From Escherichia coli (GTDB lineage Bacteria > Pseudomonadota > Gammaproteobacteria > Enterobacterales > Enterobacteriaceae), in NCBI RefSeq assembly GCF_011045215.1, contig NZ_CP049201.1: a stretch of DNA of 64,000 nucleotides; one strand, given 5' to 3'. The position numbers were made by a program, and so were the translations under genes. Of this stretch, positions 4,790-62,560 are shown piece after piece (the first letter of the stretch is position 1; each line of letters begins with the position of its first letter). The notes beneath the pieces are model-generated. The model was not told the origin of the DNA. It worked only from the letters and a program-made list of their open reading frames with translations, and did not search any database.

Positions 4790-7465
4790 TTACTTCAACA
4801 TATTACGAATGACATAATGCAAAATGCCGTCGTTCTGGTAGTAGGTCAACTCCGTCGCGGTGTCGATACGACAACGGCAGGGTACGACTTCCTGGCTACC
4901 ATCCGCGCGCGTAAGCGTCACCGGAACCGTCGCGCCGGGTTGTAGGTTTTGCAGATCGCCAATATCAATCTTCTCTTCCCCGGTTAGCCCTAACGTTTTA
5001 CGCGTTACGCCTTGCGGAAATTCCAGCGGCAGGATGCCCATGCCAATTAAATTCGAACGGTGAATTCGTTCAAACGATTCGGCAATCACCACACGAATAC
5101 CAAGCAGACGCGGACCTTTTGCCGCCCAGTCACGGCTGGAGCCTGATCCATACTCTTTCCCGGCAATCACCGCCAGCGGCGTTTGCTCCTGCTTATAGCG
5201 CATCGCAGCATCATAAATAGAGACTACGTCGCTGTCAGGTAAATGCCGCGTCATCCCCCCTTCAACGCCAGGCACCATTTCATTACGGATGCGAATATTG
5301 GCGAAGGTGCCGCGCATCATCACTTCATGGTTACCACGCCGCGAACCGTAGGAGTTAAAGTCTTTTCGCTCAACACCCCGACCTTGTAGGTATCGACCCG
5401 CTGGGCTGTCGGGCTTAATACTGCCCGCCGGAGAGATATGGTCAGTGGTGACTGAATCCCCCAGCATTGCGAGGATCCGCGCACCGTGAATATCTTCCAC
5501 AGGTGCTGGTGTTGCCTGCATTTCATCAAAGAAAGGCGATAAACGAATATAGGTTGAATCCTCCTGCCATCCGTAGGTATCGGATCGTGCGACGTTAATT
5601 TCTTTCCACTCTGCAGTGCCTTCAAAGACTTCTGCGTACTCTTTGCGGAACATTTCTGTGGAGACTTGTTCTACCGCACGGGCAATTTCTTGTGCCGATG
5701 GCCAGATATCTTTCAGATATATTGGATCGCCTTTACGATCATGACCAATAGGCTCAGAAGCCAGGTTGATATTCATATTTCCCGCCAGCGCATAAGCAAC
5801 CACCAGCGGCGGCGAGGCCAACCAGTTGGTTTTAACCAGCGGATGGATACGGCCTTCAAAGTTACGGTTGCCGGACAGCACTGCACCGACGGTTAAATCG
5901 CCTTTTTTGATTGCCGTTTCGATAGGATCGGGCAGCGGCCCAGAGTTACCAATACAGGTGGTACAACCGTATCCCACAAGGTTAAACCCCAGTTCGTCGA
6001 GATACGGTGTAAGTTTCGCTTTTGCCAGATAATCAGAAACGACTTTCGAACCCGGTGCCAGCGACGCTTTGACCCACGGTTGCCGCTTGAGGCCCAGAGT
6101 TACGGCTTTTTTCGCCAGCAAGCCTGCGGCCATCAGCACACTTGGGTTAGAGGTGTTGGTGCACGAGGTTATCGCAGCAATGACCACAGCGCCATCAGGT
6201 AACTGATACTGATGTCCGTTCATAACATAATCGACCGGCTGGCGATCTTTATGCGTGGCATTCACTTCCAGTTCGTTACTGGCGGCAAATGCTTTTGGTA
6301 CATCGGGCAGTGCAACGCGATCCTGTGGGCGTTTAGGCCCTGCCAGGCTCGCTTCAACGTCATTCATATCCAGTTCTAACGTACTGGTAAAAATCGGTTC
6401 ATCGCCCGGGTTACGCCACATGCCCTGCGCTTTGGCATATTTTTCGACCAACTCGACCTGATCTTCGCTGCGCCCGCTTAAACGCATGTAATCGAGGGTT
6501 ACAGCATCGATTGGGAAGAAGCCACAGGTGGCACCATATTCTGGCGACATATTGGCAATGGTGGCGCGATCCGCCAACGGTAGTGAATCCAGACCATCAC
6601 CATAAAATTCGACGAATTTCCCCACCACGCCATGTTTGCGCAGCATTTGGGTAACAGTGAGAACCAGGTCTGTAGCGGTAATACCTTCACGTAATTTTCC
6701 GGTAAGTTTAAAGCCCACTACGTCCGGGATAAGCATGGAAACCGGCTGGCCTAACATTGCGGCTTCTGCTTCGATGCCACCCACGCCCCACCCCAACACG
6801 CCAAGGCCGTTTATCATAGTGGTGTGCGAGTCAGTACCAACGAGTGTATCCGGATAAGCAATCCATTCACCGTCCTGCAATTCGCTCCACACTGCTTTGC
6901 CGAGATATTCGAGGTTAACCTGATGGCAAATGCCTGTGCCTGGCGGCACGACGCTAAACCGACTGAACGCCTGCTTTCCCCATTTCAGGAACACATAACG
7001 TTCGTGGTTGCGCTCCATTTCCAGGCGTACGTTTTCTTCAAATGCCTCATCATCACCAAAACGATCGACGGTCACCGAGTGGTCAATGACCAGGTCGACC
7101 GGTGAGAGCGGGTTAACCTTTGCAGTATCGCCGCCGAGGCGTTTAACCGCTTCGCGCATTGCAGCGAGATCAACAACGGCAGGTACGCCGGTAAAGTCCT
7201 GCATCAGCACCCTTGCCGGGCGGTAGGCAATTTCACGGTCAGCATGGGCATTTTTCAGCCATCCCGCCAGCGCGTGGATATCCTCTTCGGTAACCGAGTT
7301 ACCATCCTGCCAGCGCAGCAGGTTTTCGAGCAAAACTTTGAGTGACTTGGGTAGACGGGTGATATCGCCCAGTGATTTGGCAGCAAGCGGCAGGCTGTAG
7401 TAGTGGTAAGTTTTATCTTTGGCCTGCAACGTGTCCTTACTGGCTTCTCGTAGGGTTGACGACAT
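4790..7465 (-). CDS. acnA: Aconitate hydratase A
   Basis: 891-aa ORF with aconitase-family motifs; matches recalled AcnA. Confidence 0.97.
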
Positions 7466-7837
7466 AGCTCCTCCTTAATGACAGGGTTGCGAAGCCCTGA
7501 TTCTCTTCAGGGTGAATATTAAAGATAACACAAACATCGCGTAACGATTTGATAACAACCCAAATTGATAAAAGAGGAGAAACCTTGTGGCAAAGCAAAT
7601 GACAACCCCGCCGCAGCGGGGTCAAGGATCAGTGAGTAATGATCCAGAGGAGTTCGGCCCAGAAGAGCATCGACAGAGAAAACGCGCCCATCCAGGACCA
7701 ATATTTCATATTTGTGTTGATCATAGGCTACACCCTTAACGGTTATTACTTTGTGTTGAGATAACTCAACCTGTTATTGCTGCGGTGTATTAAAAGCCCT
7801 GTAATTCATTAAAAATGGGTAATAAGAATGATGATAA

Positions 7838-20214: not shown

Positions 20215-20259
20215 ATGAAAGCAATTTTCGTACTGAAAGCTTGGTGGCGCACTTCCTGA
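20215..20259 (+). CDS. trpL: trp leader peptide (14 aa, tandem Trp codons)
   Basis: ATG AAA GCA ATT TTC GTA CTG AAA GCT TGG TGG CGC ACT TCC TGA; reads [14 protein letters not shown]. Confidence 0.9.
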   Translation: [14 protein letters not shown]

Positions 20260-20301
20260 AACGGGCAGTGTATTCACCATGCGTAAAGCAATCAGATACC
20301 C

Positions 20302-20329
20302 AGCCCGCCTAATGAGCGGGCTTTTTTTT
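20302..20329 (+). terminator. trp attenuator (3:4 terminator hairpin)
   Basis: AGCCCGCCTAATGAGCGGGCT followed by TTTTTTTT, between trpL and trpE. Confidence 0.9.
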
Positions 20330-28638: not shown

Positions 28639-28764
28639 TTAAAAACGATATCCTGCTGAGAACATAAACACCCACGGATCGAGGCGTACGCTATCGTGTT
28701 GCTGTGCACCGCCCAGCTTATAATTGGCGGTGGTATCGATATCCATGTACCAGACTGACATGTT
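28639..28764 (-). pseudogene. ompW: 3' fragment of ompW (last 41 codons only)
   Basis: Minus-strand reading MSVWYMDIDTTANYKLGGAQQHDSVRLDPWVFMFSAGYRF-stop matches recalled OmpW C-terminus; in-frame stop and unrelated sequence immediately upstream. Confidence 0.8.
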
Positions 28765-28948
28765 TTAAAAAATGAAATAAGACATTGTATCTGAAAGAAA
28801 AAACAGGATTTTGAGGCGCTTTTTTATACCGTTTCTCCGTGTTTTTAACTGCCTGATTTTATTGAAATCTTTTTTAGTTTTGCAGAAAGGATTTTTTGCT
28901 CGATCGTTTTAATTTTATACATTCCTGATAACGGAAATTTTTTTGCCG

Positions 28949-29061
28949 TTGACAGTTTTTGTTCTCCGGGGCTATATTCCTCACACAACCGCAAAATCGG
29001 TTGTCGGGATTGGCGTCCCGGATGTTTACGGAGCGATATAAGACGCGCCCGCGTCTTTTTT
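28949..29061 (+). ncRNA. Candidate small RNA: sigma70-like promoter, about 75-nt structured transcript, intrinsic terminator
   Basis: TTGACA 28949-28954, 18-bp spacer, TATATT 28973-28978; two internal hairpins (CAACCG..CGGTTG, CGGGA..TCCCG); terminator AGACGCG-CCC-GCGTCT + TTTTT at 29041-29061. Confidence 0.3.
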
Positions 29062-29224
29062 CATATCGTTTGCACAGTCACATTCGCGATTTATGGCGGG
29101 CTGTGTGGGGGAGCCGAAAGGCTCGCCGGTTTCCGTACCCGGTTACGCCAACCCTGCACAGTTCGCCACCAGTTCGATTGGCGTCGTCGGTGGCGATAAT
29201 TTCCAAATGTACGGAGTTATCGTT

Positions 29225-29788
29225 ATGACCACTCAGATTTCTGTCGAAACTCTTTCCCCGATTACACACAATCAAATTCCCGTTATCACTACCGAGTTGC
29301 TGGCGCAGCTTTATGGCACGGACTCAGATAACATCAAAAAGAATTATTCGCGCAACGCAGATCGCTTTTGTGAAGGTAAGCACTTTTACAAGGTGATTGG
29401 CGATGAACTAAAGAATTTGCGGGTGACTTTAAGTCACTCACAAAATCCCATCTCTCCCAAAACTCGCTCCCTCATCCTCTGGACAGAACGCGGCGCAGCC
29501 CGCCATGCCAAAATGCTCGAAACCGATCAGGCGTGGGAAGTGTTCGAAAAACTGGAAGACTGTTATTTCAGCCATAAACAACCACCAGCAACACAAAACT
29601 CCCCCACCCCAAATGATGGATGCGCATTACTGATCCACTTCGATAAACACGGGCAGGTCGAGTTCACGGAAAAAGTCCCCGCCGATGCGATGGTATGCAC
29701 TCTGGAACGGTTTAAATTTTATCTGGAGCAACATGGGTGGATCGTTGCCCGTAAAGAACAATTGGTAGAAAGGTTGATGCGGTTTTAA
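29225..29788 (+). CDS. ORF6N-domain (KilA-N-like) protein
   Basis: ORF track 29093..29788; start taken at MTTQISVETLSPITHNQIPVITTELLAQLYG (ATG 29225); motif typical of ORF6N/antirepressor-like family. Confidence 0.6.
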   Translation: MTTQISVETLSPITHNQIPVITTELLAQLYGTDSDNIKKNYSRNADRFCEGKHFYKVIGDELKNLRVTLSHSQNPISPKTRSLILWTERGAARHAKMLETDQAWEVFEKLEDCYFSHKQPPATQNSPTPNDGCALLIHFDKHGQVEFTEKVPADAMVCTLERFKFYLEQHGWIVARKEQLVERLMRF

Positions 29789-29794
29789 TGAATG

Positions 29795-29828
29795 CAAAAC
29801 CCCGGATGATCACCGGGGTTGATTTTAT
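29795..29828. terminator. Bidirectional terminator between ORF6N gene and tail fibre assembly gene
   Basis: AACCCCGG-ATGATCA-CCGGGGTT hairpin flanked by A/T runs. Confidence 0.5.
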
Positions 29829-52086: not shown

Positions 52087-53319
52087 TCACATATTCACTA
52101 CTTTTAGCCCCTGATGACCACCAGAACGACGGATAATTCCCTTTCTGGCATCATCAACAAAATCACCAATCCATTGCATCATGATCTTACGTTGCTCAAA
52201 ATATTTTGAGCGATTATAAATATCACGAATAGCATCGCCGCTTTTATGGGCTAATGCTGCCTCAATAACATCTGGGTTAAACCCTTCTTCGTTGAGTAAC
52301 GTACTCCACATAGCCCGGAATCCGTGGGCAGTTGCAATACCATAAAATTGTCCATCTTTGAAACACTTATGACGCAACACGCTTGATATAGCTTTCCCCG
52401 GATTCTTTGGAGAAAAAAATATATAGCTACCACATTTTATTTTATTCATTTCATTTAAAATATCCACGGCTTGCCGTGAAAGCGGAACTACGTGTTCACG
52501 TCCACACTTCATTCTTTCAGGGGGAATTGTCCAGATACAATTTTCTAAATCAATTTCCTCCCATTTTGCCTCCCTTGCTTCACATGGTCGTACCATAGTG
52601 AAAATCTGGAACAAAAGAGAGCATCTTATAGAGATATTACTTGTAGTATCCCACCAGTTCAAAAATTCTGATAACAGTTCAACTGGTAATGCCTTTAATG
52701 GGGTATGTTTTTTTGTTGCAAATGCATTTCTTATTGTTGATAGCGGGTTATTTTTAATTACTCCAGAGTTAACACAGTAATTCATTATTTCATTAATTTT
52801 TGAAATAATTTTATCCAATACAGAATTACGATCAGAAAATTGATTAAGCAATGGTATGACCACAGGCGCGGTCATATCATGTATGTACACATTTCCAAAT
52901 ACAGGGATTATATGTCTGTTCAATAACTCTTCTATTGTCTGTAAAGTCGACAGTCGCAAATCACCTTTTTTCTTAAAATTAAACCATTCAATTGCAATAG
53001 CACCAAACGTCTGTAAGTGCTTTCTTTTAGCCTCGAGTCGTTTTTCTGCCCGGTATGATAACGGATCTATATCCCGTGCCAACAATCTGCGCAGATTATC
53101 GCGTTCTTCTCTGGCTTCAACCAGCGTGAAATCGGGGTATCGCCCTATAGTGTATGTTTGCCGCTTCTTCGTAAAAGGTTGTACATAACGAAAACGCCAC
53201 GATTTACTACCGGCTTTTGACACATAAAGCAAAAGCCCAAACCCATCATATAGAGCGTAATCTTTCTCTCGTGGCCTGGCGCTTTTTACCTCTGATGCAG
53301 TAAGAGGCTTCACCGACAT
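52087..53319 (-). CDS. Tyrosine recombinase, P4-type integrase
   Basis: ORF track 52087..53418; start taken at MSVKPLTASEVKSARPREKDYALYDGFGLLLYVSKAGSKSWRFRY (ATG 53319); C-terminal catalytic region with HGFR and Y. Confidence 0.85.
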   Translation of the reverse strand: MSVKPLTASEVKSARPREKDYALYDGFGLLLYVSKAGSKSWRFRYVQPFTKKRQTYTIGRYPDFTLVEAREERDNLRRLLARDIDPLSYRAEKRLEAKRKHLQTFGAIAIEWFNFKKKGDLRLSTLQTIEELLNRHIIPVFGNVYIHDMTAPVVIPLLNQFSDRNSVLDKIISKINEIMNYCVNSGVIKNNPLSTIRNAFATKKHTPLKALPVELLSEFLNWWDTTSNISIRCSLLFQIFTMVRPCEAREAKWEEIDLENCIWTIPPERMKCGREHVVPLSRQAVDILNEMNKIKCGSYIFFSPKNPGKAISSVLRHKCFKDGQFYGIATAHGFRAMWSTLLNEEGFNPDVIEAALAHKSGDAIRDIYNRSKYFEQRKIMMQWIGDFVDDARKGIIRRSGGHQGLKVVNM

Positions 53320-53492
53320 ACAAGCACTCCAATACAAATTTTTTCTAGTCCATGCGCTGGTTCCTTTTGCCAGAATACTGGCGATAAAAAAGCGAAAAAC
53401 AAGGAACAATGCACACAATGAAAAAACCGCAACTTATTGAATAAGAAGAAAAACAAAAAGAAACGGTAACGAAAGATAATGATTGCATAGTC

Positions 53493-53501
53493 CAAAAGAG
53501 A
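53493..53501. repeat. Right copy of 9-bp direct repeat CAAAAGAGA (putative att core)
   Basis: Identical to 42340-42348; about 170 bp from the integrase start. Confidence 0.5.
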
Positions 53502-53898
53502 CACGGAAAACGATGTAGTCGTCCAGCAGTCGGTCGAAGGTATCCACCTCAGCATCAATAAAAACCGCCGGATCAACGTTATCCAGCCCGAACGTGGCTC
53601 CATCAATCCAGTCAGATAAATCCATTGCCAGACAGCGGGCAAATATCTGCGGTTTTGGCACGTTTTCCGTCTTTCCGGCCCGATCAGTCACCACAAACAG
53701 ATCGCATTTCAGCGTGACCCGTGTCTGCCCGTCGGCAAACTGAGCCTTGTCCCAGCCGGGTACATCCACAAACACGGCAGGCGTCACCAGTTGCGTCACT
53801 TTTTCCGGGTACTCATCGGCATCTTCCACCCAGGGAATTTGTTTCAGACTGTCAATCACTGCCTGATGCCAGGTTCCCATCATCAATGGTTCCATCAT
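53501..53898 (-). pseudogene. 5' fragment of the split tail-completion gene
   Basis: ORF 53434..53898 reads a coherent protein to ...DDYIVFRVSF then a hydrophobic nonsense tail (GLCNHYLSLPFLFVFLLIQ) encoded by element sequence; frame at the junction matches the fragment at 42179..42339. Confidence 0.55.
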
Positions 53899-54617
53899 TC
53901 CATCCCCTTAAATACCCGGAATTTCAGTTCATGCTCAAAATTTTTCAGGATCAGTGCTTCCGCATCAGGGAAAACAAAATCCTCTATACGGTTCAGCATG
54001 GCTTCATAAATATCAATTTCCGCTTCGCGCACCCTTCGTCGTCCGGATGCCTGCCGGACCAGTACCGTCTTACGTCGTGAAATGCGTCCGCGCCGGTTTT
54101 CAGACTCAAACTCATTAACAAAAGCCTCGTCACCTGACCAGGTGGTGACCGGTATTGCCTCCCCGGCGGGCTTAAAACGTATCTCCGGCGCTTTCCTGCG
54201 ACGGGAAGCCGGTGCAAAACGCCCCCGTTCATCACGCAGCTGATGGCGTTCACCGCGTCGCCCCCCACTGATGCGTCCGCGCAGATCACGCACTTTGATG
54301 GCGTTCAGGCCGAACCACACCTTTACCTCATCAAACTCATCGCCATTTCGACGAATGATAAAAGCATTCAGGACACGTTTTTTGATCATTTTCTGGCTGC
54401 GTGGCGCAACCTGTTTTTTAAACTCTGCCATGGCCTTCATCCGCAGTGCGGACGCGGCTCTTTTCAGCGCCACGCCCCAGGCTTTACGGATCTGGCTTTT
54501 TGAACCACCCAGTTTAGCGATAATTTTCAGCACATCATCCTCGTCAATATCGACGACGAGGTTTCGTGCCAGCCGTCGCTGCCGGACAGTGCTTCGTTCA
54601 TGCTCTCTGACTGTCAT
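53895..54617 (-). CDS. Putative head-tail joining / virion morphogenesis protein
   Basis: ORF track 53895..54677; start taken at MTVREHERSTVRQ (ATG 54617); between FII-like and tail-completion genes; family not recognised. Confidence 0.45.
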   Translation of the reverse strand: MTVREHERSTVRQRRLARNLVVDIDEDDVLKIIAKLGGSKSQIRKAWGVALKRAASALRMKAMAEFKKQVAPRSQKMIKKRVLNAFIIRRNGDEFDEVKVWFGLNAIKVRDLRGRISGGRRGERHQLRDERGRFAPASRRRKAPEIRFKPAGEAIPVTTWSGDEAFVNEFESENRRGRISRRKTVLVRQASGRRRVREAEIDIYEAMLNRIEDFVFPDAEALILKNFEHELKFRVFKGME

Positions 54618-55005
54618 AACGTTTACTCGGTCGGACAGGGGCGGCGGGTGTACTTCTTCCGGGTTCTCCCCGCGCAAGAGTAATGGTAATCACACCATGA
54701 CCCGCAGTGCCTGACTCATCCCAGCCAGGATCGACCACCTGGTAGGGTTCGCCGTGGATCATGACCCTGTCATATTTTTTCAGTCCGGCAACCCATGCGC
54801 TCCGGGTAAATAACACCGGTGCAGTATCACGAATTTCGCCGCTGCCAGTGTTCATCCCGGTGTTATCTGCCGGGGCATCAAAAACAGCACGGATTTTTCT
54901 TTCCGTGCCGCCCGGATATATGCTGATTTCCGTCCCCATCGTATCCAGGATGATGTCATCCGCATCACTCATGGCCTGATCGAACAGATTATCGGACATC
55001 ATCAC
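54598..55005 (-). CDS. Head-tail joining protein (lambda FII-like)
   Basis: 135-aa ORF; NLFDQAMSDADDIILDTMG resembles recalled lambda FII N-terminus; ATGA overlap with FI. Confidence 0.65.
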   Translation of the reverse strand: MMMSDNLFDQAMSDADDIILDTMGTEISIYPGGTERKIRAVFDAPADNTGMNTGSGEIRDTAPVLFTRSAWVAGLKKYDRVMIHGEPYQVVDPGWDESGTAGHGVITITLARGEPGRSTPAAPVRPSKRYDSQRA

Positions 55006-55388
55006 TCCCGGATTTTTTCTGCCAGACCATCCGCCAGCAACGCAGGAACTGTGGCTTCATTAACCAGCACAACACTGGAGGCCCGGGCGAACATCAACAT
55101 TTTGCCCGTCACCGCATCACGGGACGGCATATGTGCCGTTTTCAGCATGCGCACCCGAACGAGTCCCCGCTCAGAATACACCTCATTACGGGCATCCCCT
55201 CCGGATGCATCACGCTGTTCATCATGCACATCATCCTGTTCTGTCCCTTCCCCATCGAATCCGGCGGCCTCCTCTTCCCATTCCGCCAGGCGCTGTTCAA
55301 GATCGGCTTTTGAACCTGAAATATCTGCTTCACGCCCCAGAATCTCTGCCAGCTCCTGCAGGCGTTCAGTCATCTGCTCTTTTGTCAT
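55002..55388 (-). CDS. DNA packaging protein (lambda FI-like)
   Basis: ORF track 55002..55520; start taken at MTKEQMTERLQELAEILGREADISGSK (ATG 55386-55388); resembles recalled lambda FI. Confidence 0.65.
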   Translation of the reverse strand: MTKEQMTERLQELAEILGREADISGSKADLEQRLAEWEEEAAGFDGEGTEQDDVHDEQRDASGGDARNEVYSERGLVRVRMLKTAHMPSRDAVTGKMLMFARASSVVLVNEATVPALLADGLAEKIRE

Positions 55389-55438
55389 CACATTTCTCCC
55401 GTGCGATAAAGAAAAAGGCGGGAATATCCCGCCTGACC

Positions 55439-56467
55439 TTATTTCACCTGAACCACCACAAACGCGTCCGGATCCGGCAACACCATCAACGGCGCAGACT
55501 GCGTCATGGTATATTCGCACCCCGGGTCCCCCACCTCTAACCAGTGTTTCGGATAACGAATTGCAGAGGTGATCCCTTCACTCAGCGCCTGGTTATCCTG
55601 GATTGCGCCATAACAACGGACACCCTCCACCTGAGTGTTTCCAAGAATCAGTGTGCCTTCCGGCAGATAACGCTGCTCATCCCCGTTTTCATCAACATAC
55701 GTTGTTTTCGCCACCATGATGGCCAGATCACCGTAATAACCTTTAAAAGAAACCACGGAACCCAGATCTTTCAGCGCGGTTTCCAGTTCAGATTTTGAGC
55801 CACGGCGGGTATCCAGTTTTTCACGAAACAGCTTAAAACCGTTCAGCATACGCCAGACAGTACCGTCCATAATCGCAATATTGATGGTACCGGAAGCAAA
55901 ATCGCAGTACGCATCCAGATCATGCGTCGGATCAAAGGTGTCAGCATTCTGTTTTGACCATTCGCGTCCCCCTGCCTGCGTTATGTTATTGGCGGCAGAA
56001 CGTCCAAAATCCACTTCCACCGTCTCAAACTGTTCACCGCTCATGGTGTACTTACCCTGCAGAACAGCGCTGACCGCCTGCATTTCTTCCACCTGCACAA
56101 TCGCCTGCTCTTCCTGTTTCAGGTTATCAGTCAGAATACGCAGGCGACGGTAGGCCGGGTCATTAAGACGGGCCGGATCTTCCCCCGGAAGACGCTCCAC
56201 CGCCTGCTGATAATCCAGCCGGTGTTTTGGTTTAACATAGCCGGGGCGTAACACGCGGGTTTCACCACCACGACTGCGCAGTACCTTACCTGACACAACC
56301 GGAGACACATATGCCGCAACCGGTGTTTTTCCGGTGATTTTATCCAGCATCACTTCCTGAGTATGGAAAGTGACCGTACGACGAAAAAACAGCTCCAGAA
56401 ACAGCGCACGGAATTTCACTTTCTGCTCGGTGTAGCCGAGCAACTGACGCGTGGTAAATAACCCCAT
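55439..56467 (-). CDS. Major capsid protein (lambda gpE-like)
   Basis: ORF track 55439..56506; start taken at MGLFTTRQLLG (ATG 56467, RBS GGAAAG); long stretches match recalled lambda E (PIVSG.V.RSRGG, PGYVKPKH, VEEMQAVSAVL.GKYTM.GE.F, KLDTRRGS.SELETA.KDLG). Confidence 0.9.
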   Translation of the reverse strand: MGLFTTRQLLGYTEQKVKFRALFLELFFRRTVTFHTQEVMLDKITGKTPVAAYVSPVVSGKVLRSRGGETRVLRPGYVKPKHRLDYQQAVERLPGEDPARLNDPAYRRLRILTDNLKQEEQAIVQVEEMQAVSAVLQGKYTMSGEQFETVEVDFGRSAANNITQAGGREWSKQNADTFDPTHDLDAYCDFASGTINIAIMDGTVWRMLNGFKLFREKLDTRRGSKSELETALKDLGSVVSFKGYYGDLAIMVAKTTYVDENGDEQRYLPEGTLILGNTQVEGVRCYGAIQDNQALSEGITSAIRYPKHWLEVGDPGCEYTMTQSAPLMVLPDPDAFVVVQVK

Positions 56468-56537
56468 AATTGACTTTCCTTTAAAAACACAAACGAACCG
56501 CATCACGACCCGTTTTTTTCAGTTAATCACTTCACCA

Positions 56538-56873
56538 TCAGGCGTGGCTGATGGCACTTCCCACAAACGCGTTGGCTTTTTTCACCGCATCCACCGAATC
56601 CGGCCAGACCAGCGATTCGGTGGCAAACGTACCGCTTTTGTAGTACGTCAGTGTGGGCTCGGTCCCGGCCAGCGCCAGTGCCAGTACCCCCACAGCCGTT
56701 CCGGCTTTCTGACCATCCCATGCCACCAGTTTTCCGCTGGCGTCATCCAGCATCAGTGGCGTCAGTGAAGGCGTGGCAACACTGATACCGCTGGTACCTG
56801 TTGCGGTATACACCGGATCGCTTCCGGCAAAAATGCGCCCGTCCGCACGCTTTTCTGTGGTGGTTTTAATCAT
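56538..56873 (-). CDS. Head decoration protein (lambda gpD-like)
   Basis: ORF track 56538..56903; start taken at MIKTTTEKRADG (ATG 56873); TPLMLDDASGKLVAWDG...YYKSGTF...WPD matches recalled lambda D. Confidence 0.85.
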   Translation of the reverse strand: MIKTTTEKRADGRIFAGSDPVYTATGTSGISVATPSLTPLMLDDASGKLVAWDGQKAGTAVGVLALALAGTEPTLTYYKSGTFATESLVWPDSVDAVKKANAFVGSAISHA

Positions 56874-56913
56874 TTTCTCAGTCTCCTGATTTATCTGAAT
56901 CACGGATCCCCGC

Positions 56914-58395
56914 TTACGGCATACTCATCAGCAGTTCTTCTTCCCCGTTCCCGGCAGTTCCGCCACCGGAAACGGCACTGGCGGCATGCTGTGCCATGAA
57001 GCGCTCAAAAAGTGTTACCTGTGACGGTTGCGATACTGATGGCGCAGCTGCCAGCAGTGTTTTCGCCTGGTCCACTGTCATTCCCGGCTGTTCAGCCAGC
57101 GCCTGTGCCAGTTTTTCGCGTCCTTTTGCTTCCGGAAGTGCCATTATCTGCTCGCCGGTACTTGCCGCACCGGTTGCCGGTGCCGCTGCCAGTAACATTT
57201 TCGCCTGTTCCACCGTCATTCCCGGCTGTTCAGCCAGCGTCCGTGCCAGTTGTTCACGCCCTTTTGCTTCCGGAAGTGCCACAATCTGATCGCCAGTACT
57301 GTCAGTACCGGCAACCGGTGCCGCTGCCAGTAACGTTTTCGCCTGCTCAACTGACATTCCCTGCTGACCTGCCAGCATCTGCGCCAGTTTTTCGCGTCCT
57401 TTCGCCTCCTGACAATTCAGGATCCCCATCACGCGCTGATTTTCCTGGGACACCGCTTCAGCAACGGTGAGATTTTTTGTTGTCATCGTATTCTCCTGTG
57501 TAACAGAGTCGTTCAGAGCAGAAACCATTACATCAACGGCATCTGCAGCATTAATCAGTTGATCAGCCAGGCCTGTATCAATGCCTGCCTGACCGTCATA
57601 AACGGCAGCCTCGGTATTCATCACCACCTCTGAACTCAGCCCCGTATAAAGTGCCACCTTGTCGACAAACATCCGGCGGGCCTCATCAATACGGCGCTGA
57701 AAATCCGCACGCACACCTGTCGGCAACGCCTGAATACTGTTGCCGTCAACCTTGTGCTGCCCGGAGTAAATCAGCGTGATATCCACCCCTTCCTGTGCCA
57801 GTTGTTTCTCATAACTGATGTGCGCCATCATCACACCAATCGAACCAATTTTTGCCGTCTGCGTGACCAGCCGACGCGTACAGGCTGCCGCCAGCAACAT
57901 GGCGGCTGAACAGGCCATGTCATTACACAGCGCCCACACGGGCTTCTGTTCCCGCAGACGGTAAATCATGTCAGCACAGTCAAACGCCCCGGCAGCCTGA
58001 CCGCCAGGACTGTCGATATCCAGCAAAATACCGCGCACATCCGGATCATTCACCGCCAGCTGAAGACGGGCGGTAAGACCGTCATAGCCTGTCATGCCAG
58101 AGTAAGGCCTCAGGGTACCCATTTTATGTACCAGCGTGCCGCTCACCGGCAGAATGGCGATGCCATTTTTCACCTGATAGCATTTTTCAGGACGCCGGCC
58201 ACCAGACATATAGTCCGCCACCGCCAGTTGCATACCGTCGGCATCAAGCTGAACATCCAGTTGCGGAACGGAAAGACTGCCCGCCCCCATCTCCTTACCC
58301 AGCGCGCAAAAGAAAACCCGCGCATAGGCGGGTTCCAGTAAAAGCGGTTCATTAAATGCCATGGCGGCAATATGCGATAAATTACGACGCATCAC
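56914..58395 (-). CDS. Head maturation protease / scaffold (lambda gpC-like, S49 peptidase) with triplicated C-terminal repeat
   Basis: N-terminus ...NLSHIAAMAFNEPLLLEPAYARVFFCAL matches recalled lambda C; C-terminal region has three tandem copies of an ~46-aa unit. Confidence 0.85.
   Translation of the reverse strand: MMRRNLSHIAAMAFNEPLLLEPAYARVFFCALGKEMGAGSLSVPQLDVQLDADGMQLAVADYMSGGRRPEKCYQVKNGIAILPVSGTLVHKMGTLRPYSGMTGYDGLTARLQLAVNDPDVRGILLDIDSPGGQAAGAFDCADMIYRLREQKPVWALCNDMACSAAMLLAAACTRRLVTQTAKIGSIGVMMAHISYEKQLAQEGVDITLIYSGQHKVDGNSIQALPTGVRADFQRRIDEARRMFVDKVALYTGLSSEVVMNTEAAVYDGQAGIDTGLADQLINAADAVDVMVSALNDSVTQENTMTTKNLTVAEAVSQENQRVMGILNCQEAKGREKLAQMLAGQQGMSVEQAKTLLAAAPVAGTDSTGDQIVALPEAKGREQLARTLAEQPGMTVEQAKMLLAAAPATGAASTGEQIMALPEAKGREKLAQALAEQPGMTVDQAKTLLAAAPSVSQPSQVTLFERFMAQHAASAVSGGGTAGNGEEELLMSMP
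57040..57406. repeat. Tandem repeat, about 138 bp x 2.7, inside the gpC-like gene
   Basis: Protein units EAKGRE(K/Q)LA..LA.Q.GM(S/T)V(E/D)QAK.LLAAAP...STG.QI.ALP repeated; DNA motif ...GTGCCAGTTTTTCGCG..TTTTGCTTCCGGAAGTGCCA recurs at about 138-bp period. Confidence 0.7.
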
Positions 58396-59953
58396 CTTTT
58401 TCTCCCGTTGTCTGACGGATCTGCTGCTGAAACGCGTCCTTTATCCAGACCGGACGCGGAAGACCGGCAGCCTGTCGCTCCTGAGTTTCCCGTAGCTGCT
58501 GGCGGAAAATCTCCTGATAGTCATCCCCCATCAGGGCCAGCTCTTTCTCGTATGTACTCAGGCCGCCTTCAATGCGCATCACCGCTTCCTGCACTTCCTT
58601 AAGGCCATCAATCGCCATACGACCGGCACCAATCCACTCGGCACGGCACCACCCGGAACGGGCCTCCCAGAATGAGAAACGGGATTTCGGCGGACGGATC
58701 ACACCACGAATAAGGGCTTCCTCCAGCCAGCAGGCAAACATCTGTGACGCCAGGCGACTGGCCACAAATTTTCGTTTTCCCATAAAATACCGCCACGACT
58801 CATTGGCGGATGCCCTGGCACTGGAATAACTGACCTGTGAATAATCACGGGAAAGCTGCTCATAGGACACGCCCAGTCCGGCAGCTATGTAACGTAACAG
58901 CGCCTTTTCCAGTTCAGAAAAACCATTATCCGCATTCTGGGCTGTCTGCAGATTCAGTGAATCTCCCGGGTAAAGATGCGGAATACGGACCCCGCCCAGT
59001 TTTACCGTATTGGTGGCGTAATAACGCGCGTAGCCTTTCATGATGGTGTTCAGGGGATTTTTACCTCCATCTCCCACTCCGGCGATATATTCAAACGCTT
59101 TTTCCGAATCCAGTGTGGATTCAATCGTCGCGGCGTACATCGCCCGCACCACCGCCGACTGCAGTTGCGTGGCCTGCAGTGTGTCGAGCATCTTGAGACG
59201 CTCCATGACGGAATAAAACTGGTTGGCCCCGCGCGTCTGCCCGTCTTCCTGTGGCTGAAACACATGGATCATTCCCGGTCTCCCGGAAGGCAGTGTTGCC
59301 GTAATTCGTGTCCATTTACTGACACCGTAGCCGGGCCAGCCATCATCCTGAACATGGTAGGCCAGCGCTTTTCCGTGTCGGTTTATTTCCACCCCGGCAC
59401 GCATAAAACGATCGCCGGTACCATAACCGGGTGTACTGACACGCTTCGGGCTGATGGTTTTGAATTTCGTCCGGAATAATGACGTGGATTCCGCATCCCA
59501 TACGGGCTGGACAAAAATTTCACCGTTAAACGTATGGACCCCCACCCCTTCACGAATGAATTCGGTAAACGAACGACGTCCTTCCACATCCATCGTACCA
59601 AACACCGGATCGCAGTATTCCATCCACGCAGCCTCAACATCTTCAATAAAAGCATGTGAATCTGCTTCCGACATCCCCAGCCAGCGCCAGTTGGGACGGT
59701 AACTCAGACGAAACATGTGCCCGACAATATGATCCTTATGAATTTCCACTGCATTCGATGCAATACCGTTGTTACGGACCAGATCATCCGCGCGGGCGTT
59801 ACCCAGATGAATGGAAGGTAAGAGCGCCACGTCGGCACTTTCCGGTGCAGGCAGCCATTCTGCCATTTGCCCACCGAACCCGGAACCACCACCAGAATAT
59901 CCCATGCTTTGCCGTAAAGGCTGCCCATGAATATCCACCAGTTCCCCGTTCAC
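58382..59953 (-). CDS. Portal protein (lambda gpB-like)
   Basis: 523-aa ORF; GGGSGFGGQ, LPGDSLNLQTAQ.DNG, LLRYIAAGLGVSYEQLSR, GRMAIDGLKEVQEAVM match recalled lambda B. Confidence 0.9.
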   Translation of the reverse strand: MNGELVDIHGQPLRQSMGYSGGGSGFGGQMAEWLPAPESADVALLPSIHLGNARADDLVRNNGIASNAVEIHKDHIVGHMFRLSYRPNWRWLGMSEADSHAFIEDVEAAWMEYCDPVFGTMDVEGRRSFTEFIREGVGVHTFNGEIFVQPVWDAESTSLFRTKFKTISPKRVSTPGYGTGDRFMRAGVEINRHGKALAYHVQDDGWPGYGVSKWTRITATLPSGRPGMIHVFQPQEDGQTRGANQFYSVMERLKMLDTLQATQLQSAVVRAMYAATIESTLDSEKAFEYIAGVGDGGKNPLNTIMKGYARYYATNTVKLGGVRIPHLYPGDSLNLQTAQNADNGFSELEKALLRYIAAGLGVSYEQLSRDYSQVSYSSARASANESWRYFMGKRKFVASRLASQMFACWLEEALIRGVIRPPKSRFSFWEARSGWCRAEWIGAGRMAIDGLKEVQEAVMRIEGGLSTYEKELALMGDDYQEIFRQQLRETQERQAAGLPRPVWIKDAFQQQIRQTTGEKGDAS

Positions 59954-60159
59954 AGCCCCACTCCTGCCGGGCCACGACGCCGTCCGGATACACCCAGCGC
60001 ACTTTCCAGCTCTTCAATATACTGACGCAGTTCACCAATCGTCGCACGCGAATACTGAACCTGCCGTCCGTTCCTGCCGACAGAAACCACAGCACGCCCG
60101 ATCATCAGTTCATGTAATGCCCGACGCGCCTCGCAAAGCATTTCATGCGTATAAACCAT
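59950..60159 (-). CDS. Head-tail connector (lambda gpW-like)
   Basis: 69-aa ORF; ARRALHELMIGRAVVSV..GRQVQYSRATIGELRQYIEELE...RRRGPAG resembles recalled lambda W. Confidence 0.8.
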   Translation of the reverse strand: MVYTHEMLCEARRALHELMIGRAVVSVGRNGRQVQYSRATIGELRQYIEELESALGVSGRRRGPAGVGL

Positions 60160-60162
60160 CCT

Positions 60163-62079
60163 TTATCCTCCACTCAGTGCAGCCGCGATCTCTTCCATGC
60201 TCATATCATCCTCATCCTGCTCATCTCTTCGTGCCCTCGCCAGCGCTTCAAGGTCCAGTTGCCACCGCTGTACCGAAACGCGCAGGGCGGCATAAGCATA
60301 TACCAGGCAGTCGAGGGCTTCGTTGCGTCGCCCTTTTTTATCCCACAGCAGTTTCACCCTGCCGTTAACCACCTTTTCCACCAGTTCTTCCGCTACGATT
60401 TGACGCGCCTCTTCTTCCGAAAAAATGTCCGGGTTATCCGGAAAACGGAAGGTATACGGGGCTGCTTCACTTGCAGAAACCACCGGCAGGGCAAAACGCG
60501 CATACAGCATTTCCTTGACGGTATCGGAGCCCACCTCACACAAAAACACACCACGCTGGTTGCGCTTTTTGGGCATGGTGATCACCGGCTTGCCATACAC
60601 CGATGCCCCTTTTATGGGAAGCACAAAAAAAGTGCCGTGTTTCCTGGAACGCTGATACACAATGTCCTGGTCGATACCACCGGTATCCCAGCAGACGCGG
60701 GAAATGGAAATTTCAGTACCGTCAGCATGGCGGTATTTTTTCCGGATCACCGCATCAACACGTTTAAGGGTGTCCTCGTCCTCCGGTCGCCCCATGATAA
60801 TTTGCTTGTCAATCAGAAAGGCTTCTTCGCCGGGAGCCCAGCCCCAGACATAAATTTCATAGCGATCTTTCTGGGAGTCGATCCCGGCAGTCAGGTAAAC
60901 CACCCGCAGGGGAACCTGCGCATCATAGTGGCAGACTTTTTCCAGCAACAACTCAAAGCTCAGTTTTTCTGCCACGGCCTCTTCATAGGGCTCCCCGAGC
61001 GTGGTGTTAATAAACGTCTTGACACCGTTCGGATCCTTCAGCGCATCCAGCCAGTCATAAACAATCTGTACCCAGGTGGTGAACGGACTGTACGCTGTCC
61101 ACACGTGGTACGTGATTGAGCGCGGTGGCGGCATCTCCTCATCACCGGCGCTGTAAAATGCCAGGCCGTCACGCGTCCACATCCCGGTATTGTCACAAAT
61201 CCAGCGCCCGTCGGTCTGGTCAAGCTCCGACTGCCGGATCACACAGCCATTATGTTCACACAGGTAATACACCGTTTCCGGTTTACCCTTCTCCCATTTC
61301 AGGCCAAAGGTTGTCGCATCATCGCCAAACTTAAGATACTGGGCTTCACCACAATGAGGGCATGGCACATAAAACCGCATAAAATGTGCAGATTCGTTCG
61401 CGGCTTTTTCAATCTGACAGGAACCTTTAATTTTTGGCGTTGAGCCGCGTATGGATTTAGGCCATACCGAACCTTCGATACGTTTATCGCCAAGCAGCGT
61501 TGGCGAGCCTTCCTTTTCCACATCCGGTTCAAACGAGGAGAGTTCGTCATAGCAGACCACATCCACTGATTTTTCACGGTAGTTTTTAGCAGCGGCACCC
61601 CCCAGGCACCAGAACCCCACGCCGGAGGAGAAACGCTTCAGGGTGAGTGTGTTGTCACGATGTTTTCTGCCCAGCCATGGCGATAACGCTTTAAGGCTGG
61701 GGACATCCCGGAGCGTTGCTTCCACATGCGCTTTCATAAAATCTTCAGCTGCGGAATCTGTCGGCTGGAAGAGCAGGCTGTTACGGGATTTATGCTCAAT
61801 AAAATACCCGACCACGCCCAGCAGCATTTTGGTGTAACCCACACGCGCCGATTTAATCAGATTAACAGTGCGGATCCTGTCGTGCCCCATGCTGTTCATA
61901 ATGGCGACCTGGAACGGCAGTGTTTTCCATTCCCCATCACCGTATGACGATTCTTTAGGCAGATAATAATTTTGATCAGCCCATTCAACTGCCGTCATCG
62001 GTACAACCCTGACCAGAGGCTGCAGCGCAACTGAAACAGCAGCCATCATATTATTCAGCTGTAGTTCGGATATATTCAT
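60163..62079 (-). CDS. Terminase large subunit (lambda gpA-like)
   Basis: ORF track 60163..62115; start taken at MNISELQ (ATG 62079); extensive match to recalled lambda A (TAVEWAD.NYYLPKES, KRIEGSVWPKSIRGSTPK, WTAYSPFTTWVQIV). Confidence 0.95.
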   Translation of the reverse strand: MNISELQLNNMMAAVSVALQPLVRVVPMTAVEWADQNYYLPKESSYGDGEWKTLPFQVAIMNSMGHDRIRTVNLIKSARVGYTKMLLGVVGYFIEHKSRNSLLFQPTDSAAEDFMKAHVEATLRDVPSLKALSPWLGRKHRDNTLTLKRFSSGVGFWCLGGAAAKNYREKSVDVVCYDELSSFEPDVEKEGSPTLLGDKRIEGSVWPKSIRGSTPKIKGSCQIEKAANESAHFMRFYVPCPHCGEAQYLKFGDDATTFGLKWEKGKPETVYYLCEHNGCVIRQSELDQTDGRWICDNTGMWTRDGLAFYSAGDEEMPPPRSITYHVWTAYSPFTTWVQIVYDWLDALKDPNGVKTFINTTLGEPYEEAVAEKLSFELLLEKVCHYDAQVPLRVVYLTAGIDSQKDRYEIYVWGWAPGEEAFLIDKQIIMGRPEDEDTLKRVDAVIRKKYRHADGTEISISRVCWDTGGIDQDIVYQRSRKHGTFFVLPIKGASVYGKPVITMPKKRNQRGVFLCEVGSDTVKEMLYARFALPVVSASEAAPYTFRFPDNPDIFSEEEARQIVAEELVEKVVNGRVKLLWDKKGRRNEALDCLVYAYAALRVSVQRWQLDLEALARARRDEQDEDDMSMEEIAAALSGG

Positions 62080-62560
62080 CGAGTAACTCCGGCAATTTAT
62101 CCCCTGTCCGCGCACACTGATTCGCGCCTTTTGCGATAAGGGTTTTCAGATAATCGATATGACGCGGGGTTAAATCCGGGAACTGTCGCTGCATGGATAA
62201 AGGAATGGAATCAAGCGTACTGGACAATGCCATCGCCAGTTTGCTGAGAGCGAAAACGCAGAACCCAGAATCAATGAGCTTGCCTTCGGTTACCTGATTT
62301 TTTAATTGCTGTGCTATTGCCTGTTCTTCAGTCAATTTCCATCTGGCGATAAGTAATTTTTCTTCGTAATCGCTATTTCCATCGTCATCAGTATCGCTTC
62401 TTCCTTTGCGTTTAAGGTATGAAATATAAAAATATCGCCAGGCATCAATATCGTATTCACCACGCTTTCGATTTTTTGGCGCTCCCGGGTGCTTCTGAAG
62501 ATCCCGCAACCAGCGTTCAGTTATACCAAGATGCTCGGCTACCTCCGCCTGCGTTGCCAT
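62051..62560 (-). CDS. Terminase small subunit (Nu1-like, prophage copy)
   Basis: 169-aa ORF upstream of terL; C-terminal half similar to the element TerS; N-terminal domain distinct. Confidence 0.8.
   Translation of the reverse strand: MATQAEVAEHLGITERWLRDLQKHPGAPKNRKRGEYDIDAWRYFYISYLKRKGRSDTDDDGNSDYEEKLLIARWKLTEEQAIAQQLKNQVTEGKLIDSGFCVFALSKLAMALSSTLDSIPLSMQRQFPDLTPRHIDYLKTLIAKGANQCARTGDKLPELLDEYIRTTAE

Follow-up and report, generated by a model that had tools for sequence, protein, structure and literature searches.

An IsrK-family small RNA at the ompW-proximal end of an Escherichia coli prophage and its probable role in a P1/P7-type C4 cassette controlling an ORF6N antirepressor

Introduction

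Expression of ant in phage P22 is limited by an antisense RNA, sar, and the prophage RNAs AgvB and AsxR mimic a target to titrate a regulatory RNA. In phages P1 and P7, the immI region reportedly comprises the c4 antisense RNA, the site pairs a1 b1 and a2 b2, and the genes icd and ant, an arrangement said to have been described by Citron and Schuster in 1990. C4 is also said to be released from its precursor by RNase P in these phages, a result attributed to Hartmann et al. in 1995. IsrK, from the Salmonella prophage Gifsy-1, was reportedly described by Padalon-Brauch in 2008.

The GenBank record of P1 gives the order promoter P1c4, a1, b1, c4 RNA, a2, b2, icd and ant. The a′ site of P1 (CUGUCAA) lies in a single-stranded junction of C4, and a1 and a2 both read UUGACAG. 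The b′ site, UCACUAAC, forms the loop of C4 hairpin 2; b1 and b2 are GUUAGUG(C/A), and b2 runs into the Shine-Dalgarno (SD) sequence of icd.

IsrK has been shown experimentally to be a small RNA of Gifsy-1 (Hershko-Shalev 2016, PMC4825925). Two RNAs arise from the Gifsy-1 isrK promoter, a short one that is terminated and an isrK–orf45–anrP mRNA that results from read-through and is translationally silent; the former acts on the latter. Supplied in trans, short IsrK raises anrP translation more than 100-fold; the variants IsrK-G28A and G31A lose this activity and are suppressed by C162U and C159U, respectively, and translation of orf45 is coupled to that of anrP (PMC4825925). The same work demonstrated pairing in cis of the segments called a1 and a′ below, within "structure A," and reported a stable RNA of ∼80 nt, STnc1160, that is processed from the read-through transcript. 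In addition, orf45 was found to be conserved in its nucleotides and not in its amino acids, a pattern to be expected from a constraint acting on RNA. The isoforms, Hfq binding and trans-activation of an antirepressor are known for IsrK only in Gifsy-1 (PMC4825925). Its authors themselves likened IsrK to the seqA/CI system of phage P4; a term search of that paper gave no occurrence of Citron, phage P1 or RNase P, and a 2025 review gives IsrK and c4 separate entries. Here we describe an IsrK-family RNA in an E. coli prophage and compare its surroundings with these systems.

Results and Discussion

Position of the Cassette Next to ompW at a Prophage End

The window, by which we mean the whole 64,000-nt (64-kb) stretch of E. 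coli DNA that was analyzed, contains the host genes trpA, yciG, yciF and yciE, followed by a remnant of ompW:

28639-28761, − strand: ompW 3′ fragment, last 40 codons; the ORF ends in ...SAGYRF and is annotated by PGAP as partial OmpW

E. coli genomes with an intact ompW align to the window only as far as 28764. Thus, prophage DNA starts at ∼28765 (host/prophage junction ∼28764/28765), and the promoter described below lies 185 nt inside the prophage from this junction. Neither the 5′ part of ompW nor an att repeat of at least 12 nt was found in a search of the 64-kb window; the other half of ompW and any att repeat are outside it.

Beyond the cassette, the minus strand carries from 29825 to ∼48800, in order, tail fibre and assembly genes, a gpD-like tail protein, a tape-measure-like protein, a sheath gene and a primase-helicase. 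An integrase gene (52087-53418, −) and then lambda-like head and terminase genes (53434-62115, −) follow. The stretch 29825-62560 looks like either two tandem elements or a mosaic. In the host part, Rfam models matched the enterobacterial sRNA STnc180 (7595-7797, −; 200 bits) and the trp operon leader (20236-20329, +; 91 bits).

A Near-Consensus Promoter Precedes an IsrK-Family RNA

The first part of the cassette consists of a promoter and a short, terminated RNA:

28949-28978, + strand: sigma-70 promoter of the module, with −35 TTGACA, an 18-nt spacer and −10 TATATT (consensus scan, 11/12)
28985-29061, + strand: IsrK-family small RNA of 77 nt, made up of hairpin 1, hairpin 2, a linker and an intrinsic terminator (Rfam RF01394)
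28985-29004, + strand: IsrK hairpin 1, 7 bp, loop GCAAAAUC (fold; Rfam isrK consensus)
29005-29020, + strand: IsrK hairpin 2 (fold; Rfam isrK consensus)
29040-29061, + strand: intrinsic terminator with a 7-bp GC-rich stem, a 4-nt loop and U6 (−9.3 kcal/mol)

The promoter (−35 hexamer at 28949-28954, −10 hexamer at 28973-28978) is the sole sigma-70 match of at least 11/12 on both strands of the 64 kb, where Markov simulations give an expectation of ∼0.6. Its TTGAC and TATA(T/G)T align with the corresponding elements of Gifsy-1, VT2-Sakai, APSE-7, pPE4 and the P1c4 promoter of P1. The isrK model matched 28985-29061 with 75.2 bits (GA threshold 50; E 2.7e-15) over model positions 1-77 of 77. The start at 28985 was assigned by homology with the mapped start of Gifsy-1 IsrK, which gives 77 nt to the end of the T run.

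A sequence-only reading had proposed a phage-borne small RNA here from a TTGACA-18-TATATT promoter, two internal hairpins and a strong terminator with TTTTTT. All of these are present. Both internal hairpins belong to the Rfam isrK consensus, and the family has been shown to be an sRNA in Gifsy-1. The proposed fold is also conserved in relatives: hairpin 1 has compensatory changes in six of its seven pairs, and the terminator (AAGACGC-GCCC-GCGUCUU plus T6) recurs as a hairpin with a T run between b1 and C4 in 13/13 reference loci and in 83 of 88 modules from IMG/VR. Conservation of the terminator was scored per sequence, as hairpin plus T run, because indels misalign it in the MAFFT alignments, where RNAalifold shows 49% paired.

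The A-rich loop of hairpin 1 (GCAAAAUC) is strongly conserved, and its stem co-varies. No complementary partner of this loop was found in C4 or the leader; Hfq or another protein might bind it. A 32-aa ORF at 28943-29041 was rejected as a conserved protein gene, its start codon being upstream of the assigned transcription start. By Rfam, the 64-kb window contains no second copy of the IsrK–C4 module.

A C4 RNA and Its Target Sites Fill the Antirepressor Leader

The ∼160 bp before the ORF6N start codon (ATG 29225), in which the earlier reading had noted no start codon, in fact hold a C4 RNA, target sites and an ATG at 29093. The elements of this part, together with the IsrK sites that correspond to them, are as follows:

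29010-29016, + strand: a1, UUGGCGU, on the loop/3′ side of IsrK hairpin 2; complementary to a′
29027-29033, + strand: b1, UACGGAG, single-stranded, in the linker of IsrK; complement of the C4 b′ loop and mimic of the ORF6N SD region
29089-29173, + strand: C4 antisense RNA, a long outer stem enclosing two hairpins (Rfam RF01695)
29130-29138, + strand: b′, UUUCCGUAC, loop of C4 hairpin 2; placed by alignment with the annotated sites of P1
29145-29151, + strand: a′, ACGCCAA, in the single-stranded C4 junction
29178-29184, + strand: a2, UUGGCGU, directly 3′ of C4; an exact repeat of a1
29189-29196, + strand: GGUGGCGA, in the leader; complement of 29163-29170 in the C4 3′ strand
29209-29216, + strand: b2, GUACGGAG, in the leader over the ORF6N SD sequence GGAG (29213-29216)
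29225-29788, + strand: ORF6N-domain antirepressor gene, 187 aa, homologue of Gifsy-1 AnrP (by identity and PHROG)
29798-29820, + strand: terminator-like hairpin closing the cassette (terminator scan)

The C4 model matched 29089-29173 with 77.6 bits (GA 45; E 1.7e-14), and c4-a1b1 (RF03163) matched 28972-29024 (+) with 48.6 bits against a GA of 46.7. The isrK, c4-a1b1 and C4 matches are all above the curated Rfam thresholds, in the expected order and on one strand. The minimum free-energy structure of C4 from RNAfold equals the Rfam consensus, its outer stem is 99.9% paired with eight compensatory pairs, and its 3′ end, ...CACCA, is conserved in the 13-module alignment. In the window, a2 pairs with a′ over 7 bp and b2 with b′ over 8 bp (seven Watson-Crick and one G-U), the latter covering GGAG, 8 nt 5′ of the ORF6N ATG. 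The IsrK copies of these two C4-recognized leader sequences sit 11 nt apart. We conclude that 28985-29061 is a genuine small RNA gene of the known IsrK family and that it forms the a1-b1 part of an immI-type C4 switch.

The ORF6N protein shows 54% identity to the equally long STM2616 (Gifsy-1 AnrP; E 7e-65) and matches PHROG 2379, anti-repressor (3.9e-89). No icd gene is present between C4 and the antirepressor, which is the first ORF after b2, and therefore the window antirepressor itself carries the masked SD sequence. The consensus scan found no other promoter-like site between the terminator and ORF6N; hence C4 and the antirepressor most probably depend on read-through of the terminator.

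The ATG at 29093, in the C4 5′ strand and corresponding to the start of Gifsy-1 orf45, is in frame with ORF6N with no intervening stop, giving 231 aa. Among the 13 reference loci, this upstream ORF spans 14-231 aa (14-123 aa, in varying frames, in the 12 besides the window); its length and frame are not conserved, and we rejected it as a conserved protein gene. A short upstream ORF ending at the antirepressor start, as in orf45-type coupling, was not found in the window. Because the 29093 frame has no stop and the upstream ORF is not conserved, the coupling step of Gifsy-1 cannot act unchanged here. Masking of the antirepressor's own SD sequence by b′, unlike the upstream ORF, is conserved.

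An alternative fold involves the 3′ end of C4. The 3′ strand of its outer stem (29163-29170, TCGCCACC) is complementary to the leader at 29189-29196 (GGTGGCGA), and the resulting hairpin could present a2 in its loop and compete with the base of C4. An inverted repeat of 7-10 bp, usually TCACCACC/GGTGGTGA, occupies this position in 79/88 IMG/VR modules, and the window has a compensatory G-C where the IMG/VR modules have A-T.

The a and b Sites Co-vary with C4

The a and b sites were taken from the GenBank annotation of P1 and transferred to the window through an alignment of 13 modules (window, Gifsy-1, P1, VT2-Sakai, phiV10, SfV, Ayreon, APSE-7, pPE4, phiSTEC1589, phi349, Stx2c_2409 and Aeromonas LPM4). 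These reference loci were not selected for complementarity. They contain seven a-types and ∼10 b-types, each matched three ways. A complementary a1:a′ run of at least 7 nt is present in 13/13 loci and an a2:a′ run in 12/13; the mean run is 6.5 nt for cognate b1:b′ and 7.5 nt for cognate b2:b′, compared with 4.2 and 4.8 nt for the respective non-cognate combinations.

A pattern scan of IMG/VR, anchored on the conserved flanks and not on the a/b sites, returned 120 loci representing 100 unique modules. In 90 of the 100 modules, the C4 junction contained the a1 7-mer as an exact reverse complement, and in 88 an exact repeat of the a1 7-mer stood just 3′ of C4, the pattern spanning 13 a-types. In the 88 modules, 42 different b′ zones occur. 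For cognate runs, the median is 8 nt with b1 and 9 nt with b2, versus ∼4.6-4.7 nt for non-cognate ones, and in nearly all 88 modules b2 abuts or overlaps the SD sequence 5-12 nt 5′ of the ATG.

The helices themselves were assessed in a 57-sequence alignment, where IsrK hairpin 1 and the C4 helices have 92% of cells paired and 28 pairs with compensatory changes; with the partners slid by one to three columns, pairing in the same helices falls to 36-46%. The a1:a′ and a2:a′ pairings on this alignment (98.5% paired, five compensatory pairs each) are inflated figures, biased because its IMG/VR rows were pre-selected for exact a-site matches; the unbiased values are those given above for the 13 reference loci and the 100 IMG/VR modules. 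In addition, isrK is followed by C4 25-30 nt later in 10 of 10 other phage loci examined. The window RNA belongs to the IsrK family, the module has the anatomy of its relatives, and a′ and b′ are complementary to both sets of sites, a complementarity that is kept by co-variation.

The cognate IsrK(a1-b1):C4 duplex has a mean of −34.1 kcal/mol, compared with −28.6 kcal/mol for leader(a2-b2):C4, a stronger mean that fits a competitor role, and in the cross-matrix of duplex energies the cognate pair is usually the best. Longest-run statistics were preferred, since conserved CCGG stems add noise to the energies. When whole sequences were submitted to RNAduplex, IsrK × C4 was matched by 18 of 500 shuffles and leader × C4 by 62 of 500, only modestly better than shuffled sequences; the program gave long, permissive duplexes, and segment-level and exact-run analyses were used instead. 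Direct pairing between IsrK and the leader was rejected, because IsrK × leader was matched by 140/500 shuffles and is no better than chance.

Comparison with Gifsy-1, P1/P7 and Other Phage RNAs

When Gifsy-1 is numbered from its mapped start, G28 and G31 fall in a1 (nt 26-32), and C159 and C162 fall in a′ (nt 158-164). Since the pairs G28-C162 and G31-C159 thus lie inside a1 and a′, the published Gifsy-1 "helix b-I" is a1:a′. STnc1160 occupies the position where Rfam puts C4 in Gifsy-1, and the Gifsy-1 type locus scores 79.3 bits for isrK, 69.0 for C4 and 48.1 for c4-a1b1. The window shares with Gifsy-1 the three-hairpin 77-nt RNA (75.2 versus 79.3 bits), the promoter hexamers, the a-type UUGGCGU/ACGCCAA, and a C4-like RNA followed by a 187-aa antirepressor with the 54% identity given above. 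The two differ in b-type (UACGGAG in the window, UCACCG in Gifsy-1) and in the orf45 frame, which is open into ORF6N in the window, whereas in Gifsy-1 it ends in an AUGA overlap. Their settings also differ: the window cassette lies at a prophage end, by tail-fibre genes and the ompW junction, whereas that of Gifsy-1 is beside the antQ antiterminator gene.

The window also has the P1/P7 arrangement of promoter, a1, b1, terminator-like hairpin, C4, a2 and b2 on the SD sequence, with the same C4 fold, two-site recognition and a ribosome-binding site masked at b2. It differs from P1/P7 in the a and b sequences, in having no icd and in its antirepressor, which is of the ORF6N/AnrP type instead of Ant1/2; moreover, the isrK model is below threshold on P1. 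The P4 CI RNA with its seqA and seqC sites resembles the window cassette in having complementary sites both upstream and downstream of an antisense RNA that is processed, putatively so in the window. However, P4 CI acts, according to the literature, by premature transcription termination of replication genes, unlike the mode proposed for the window cassette, and a search with Rfam models found only C4, and no match to a P4-specific model, in the window. The remaining phage RNAs are more distant: AgvB and AsxR act by titrating sRNAs of the host, and the RNA that IsrK would titrate is its own phage's C4; sar is encoded on the strand opposite its target, unlike C4 and IsrK; and none of the three has a sequence relationship to IsrK. 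We conclude that the IsrK and P1 c4 literatures describe one device.

Distribution and Annotation

Related modules are present in 295 phage records, mostly of Stx phages, where they adjoin ant, and in 2636 of 5426 complete E. coli genomes, at up to six places per genome. The cassette adjoins tail-fibre genes in the window prophage and in phiV10. Elsewhere, it is found in the nin region of VT2-Sakai, after cro in SfV and, in a P2-like phage of Aeromonas, between gpT and gpU. Across these many genomic positions, the cassette behaves as a self-contained mobile unit with its own promoter and terminator. In the annotation of APSE phages, the two RNAs adjoin each other and precede a BRO antirepressor-like gene.

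None of the E. coli matches listed has an ncRNA annotation. RefSeq/PGAP instead often has CDSs over C4, named "hypothetical protein" or "ash family protein" (in L001 at 6394-6474, and in the E. coli matches), and these look like protein calls on an RNA gene. Because the ncRNA feature is missing and CDSs lie over C4, a cassette carried by about half of E. coli genomes goes unseen, also in most Stx phages, where it adjoins the antirepressor gene.

A Model for Antirepressor Control and Its Alternatives

Our preferred reading, to which we assign a probability of roughly 0.8, is that 28985-29061 is the IsrK of an immI-like cassette of the P1/P7 type that controls an antirepressor at the prophage end next to ompW. 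By analogy with the described systems, C4 would block translation of the antirepressor and IsrK would compete for C4. The constitutive-looking promoter would produce transcripts most of which stop at the terminator, giving the 77-nt IsrK, and some of which would read through into a long RNA that serves as ORF6N mRNA and yields C4 by excision. C4 would then pair, by way of its a′ and b′ sites, with a2 and b2, hiding the SD sequence and blocking ribosome entry, and the prophage would stay quiet. The a1 and b1 sites of IsrK, closely spaced mimics of this target, would compete for C4 in cis in the long RNA and in trans in the short one. As the short IsrK accumulates, the antirepressor would be translated and induction favored. 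For the window locus, we infer the short RNA, the read-through and the processing of C4 by analogy.

The principal competitor of this model is a pure cis leader or attenuator, in which the terminator sets the level of read-through, a1 and b1 act only within the long transcript and the 77-nt RNA is a by-product. Such a device is consistent with there being no other promoter before C4 and ORF6N and with the a1:a′ pairing shown in cis for Gifsy-1 (PMC4825925). The co-variation of a1 and b1 with C4 would fit it as well as it fits action in trans, and because co-variation cannot separate the two, the cis-only device keeps some weight. Nevertheless, in Gifsy-1, IsrK acted in trans on anrP by more than 100-fold and the G28A and G31A variants were inactive (PMC4825925), and a strong terminator is kept in essentially every module, which suggests that the short form is selected. 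We therefore consider a purely cis-acting device unlikely. The same evidence bears on the earlier statement that the unit is "not simply a leader." Its sRNA part stands, and its exclusion of a leader role does not, given that the Gifsy-1 promoter yields both forms: the IsrK unit is both sRNA and leader. Because that promoter makes both RNAs, read-through into ORF6N is expected and would not refute the sRNA.

IsrK could, alternatively, be a trans-acting, Hfq-dependent sRNA with mainly host mRNA targets, its linkage to ORF6N being incidental. The Rfam isrK family is labelled Hfq-binding, the RNA has the usual sRNA layout of a terminator hairpin and U tail, and the C4 model leaves the conserved A-rich loop of hairpin 1 unexplained. 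However, the phage-variable a1 and b1 track their own C4 and leader and not a fixed host sequence, and the gene order is constant in phages of Escherichia, Salmonella, Shigella, Hamiltonella and Aeromonas. Host mRNA targets appear to have no specific support, and since it is the C4 of the same phage that the variable parts follow, we regard a host-targeting sRNA as very improbable. Least probable of all is a chance juxtaposition of promoter-like and terminator-like sequence in the AT-rich DNA of a prophage end. Consensus scans do give many false positives, with ∼5.5 promoter-like sites per 3 kb expected at 9/12, but chance is at odds with the Rfam E value of 2.7e-15, with the sole promoter of at least 11/12 in 64 kb, with the compensatory changes in hairpin 1, and with homologous modules in 2636/5426 E. 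coli genomes and 295 phage records, and we consider it negligible.

Implications of the a/b Diversity

On its own, the window copy is of little importance; it adds a further example to an RNA family already described. What is of further value is that the IsrK and c4 descriptions can be brought together and that the a and b sites are combinatorially diverse. Joining the two literatures yields a simple model, open to testing, of the way in which prophages gate the synthesis of antirepressors and, possibly, of the influence of co-resident prophages on each other's induction.

Approximately 50 combinations of a with b occur among the 88 modules. The window prophage combines a rarer b-type with the commonest a-type, the one found also in Stx phages and Gifsy-1, and about half of E. 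coli genomes carry from one to six modules. We tentatively raise the possibility, which we hold to be somewhat doubtful, that the a and b sites form an independently assorting, two-key RNA address code, such that, between co-resident prophages, the IsrK and C4 of one could activate or silence the antirepressor of another. If so, the window prophage would be a node in an inter-prophage induction network and IsrK a general "anti-antisense" decoy. Such a code would go beyond both the published P1/P7 heteroimmunity and the Gifsy-1 model, in which IsrK is not linked to C4.

Phages with Two Modules and Other Neighbors

Two IsrK–C4 modules are present on some IMG/VR phage contigs (L077, L102 and L025). 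The modules of L077 (2307-2518 and 3311-3523) share their b-type and have different a-types, and those of L102 (5519-5732 and 6367-6580) share their a-type and have different b-types. This sharing of one key suggests that both sites are needed for specificity.

The APSE paper describes sRNA-Xcc1 adjoining an ORF6N protein. No sRNA-Xcc1 match was found in the window by Rfam; in phiSTEC1589-Stx1c (2048-2138), a match of 68.6 bits lies just downstream of the module's antirepressor gene. Finally, the record of "Actinobacillus phage vB_Apl-pPE4" (PP818812.1) contains, at 1501-1855, a module that is 91% identical to that of the window prophage, with the window's b-type and a different a-type. The recorded host is Actinobacillus pleuropneumoniae, and either this attribution or the history of the module looks odd.
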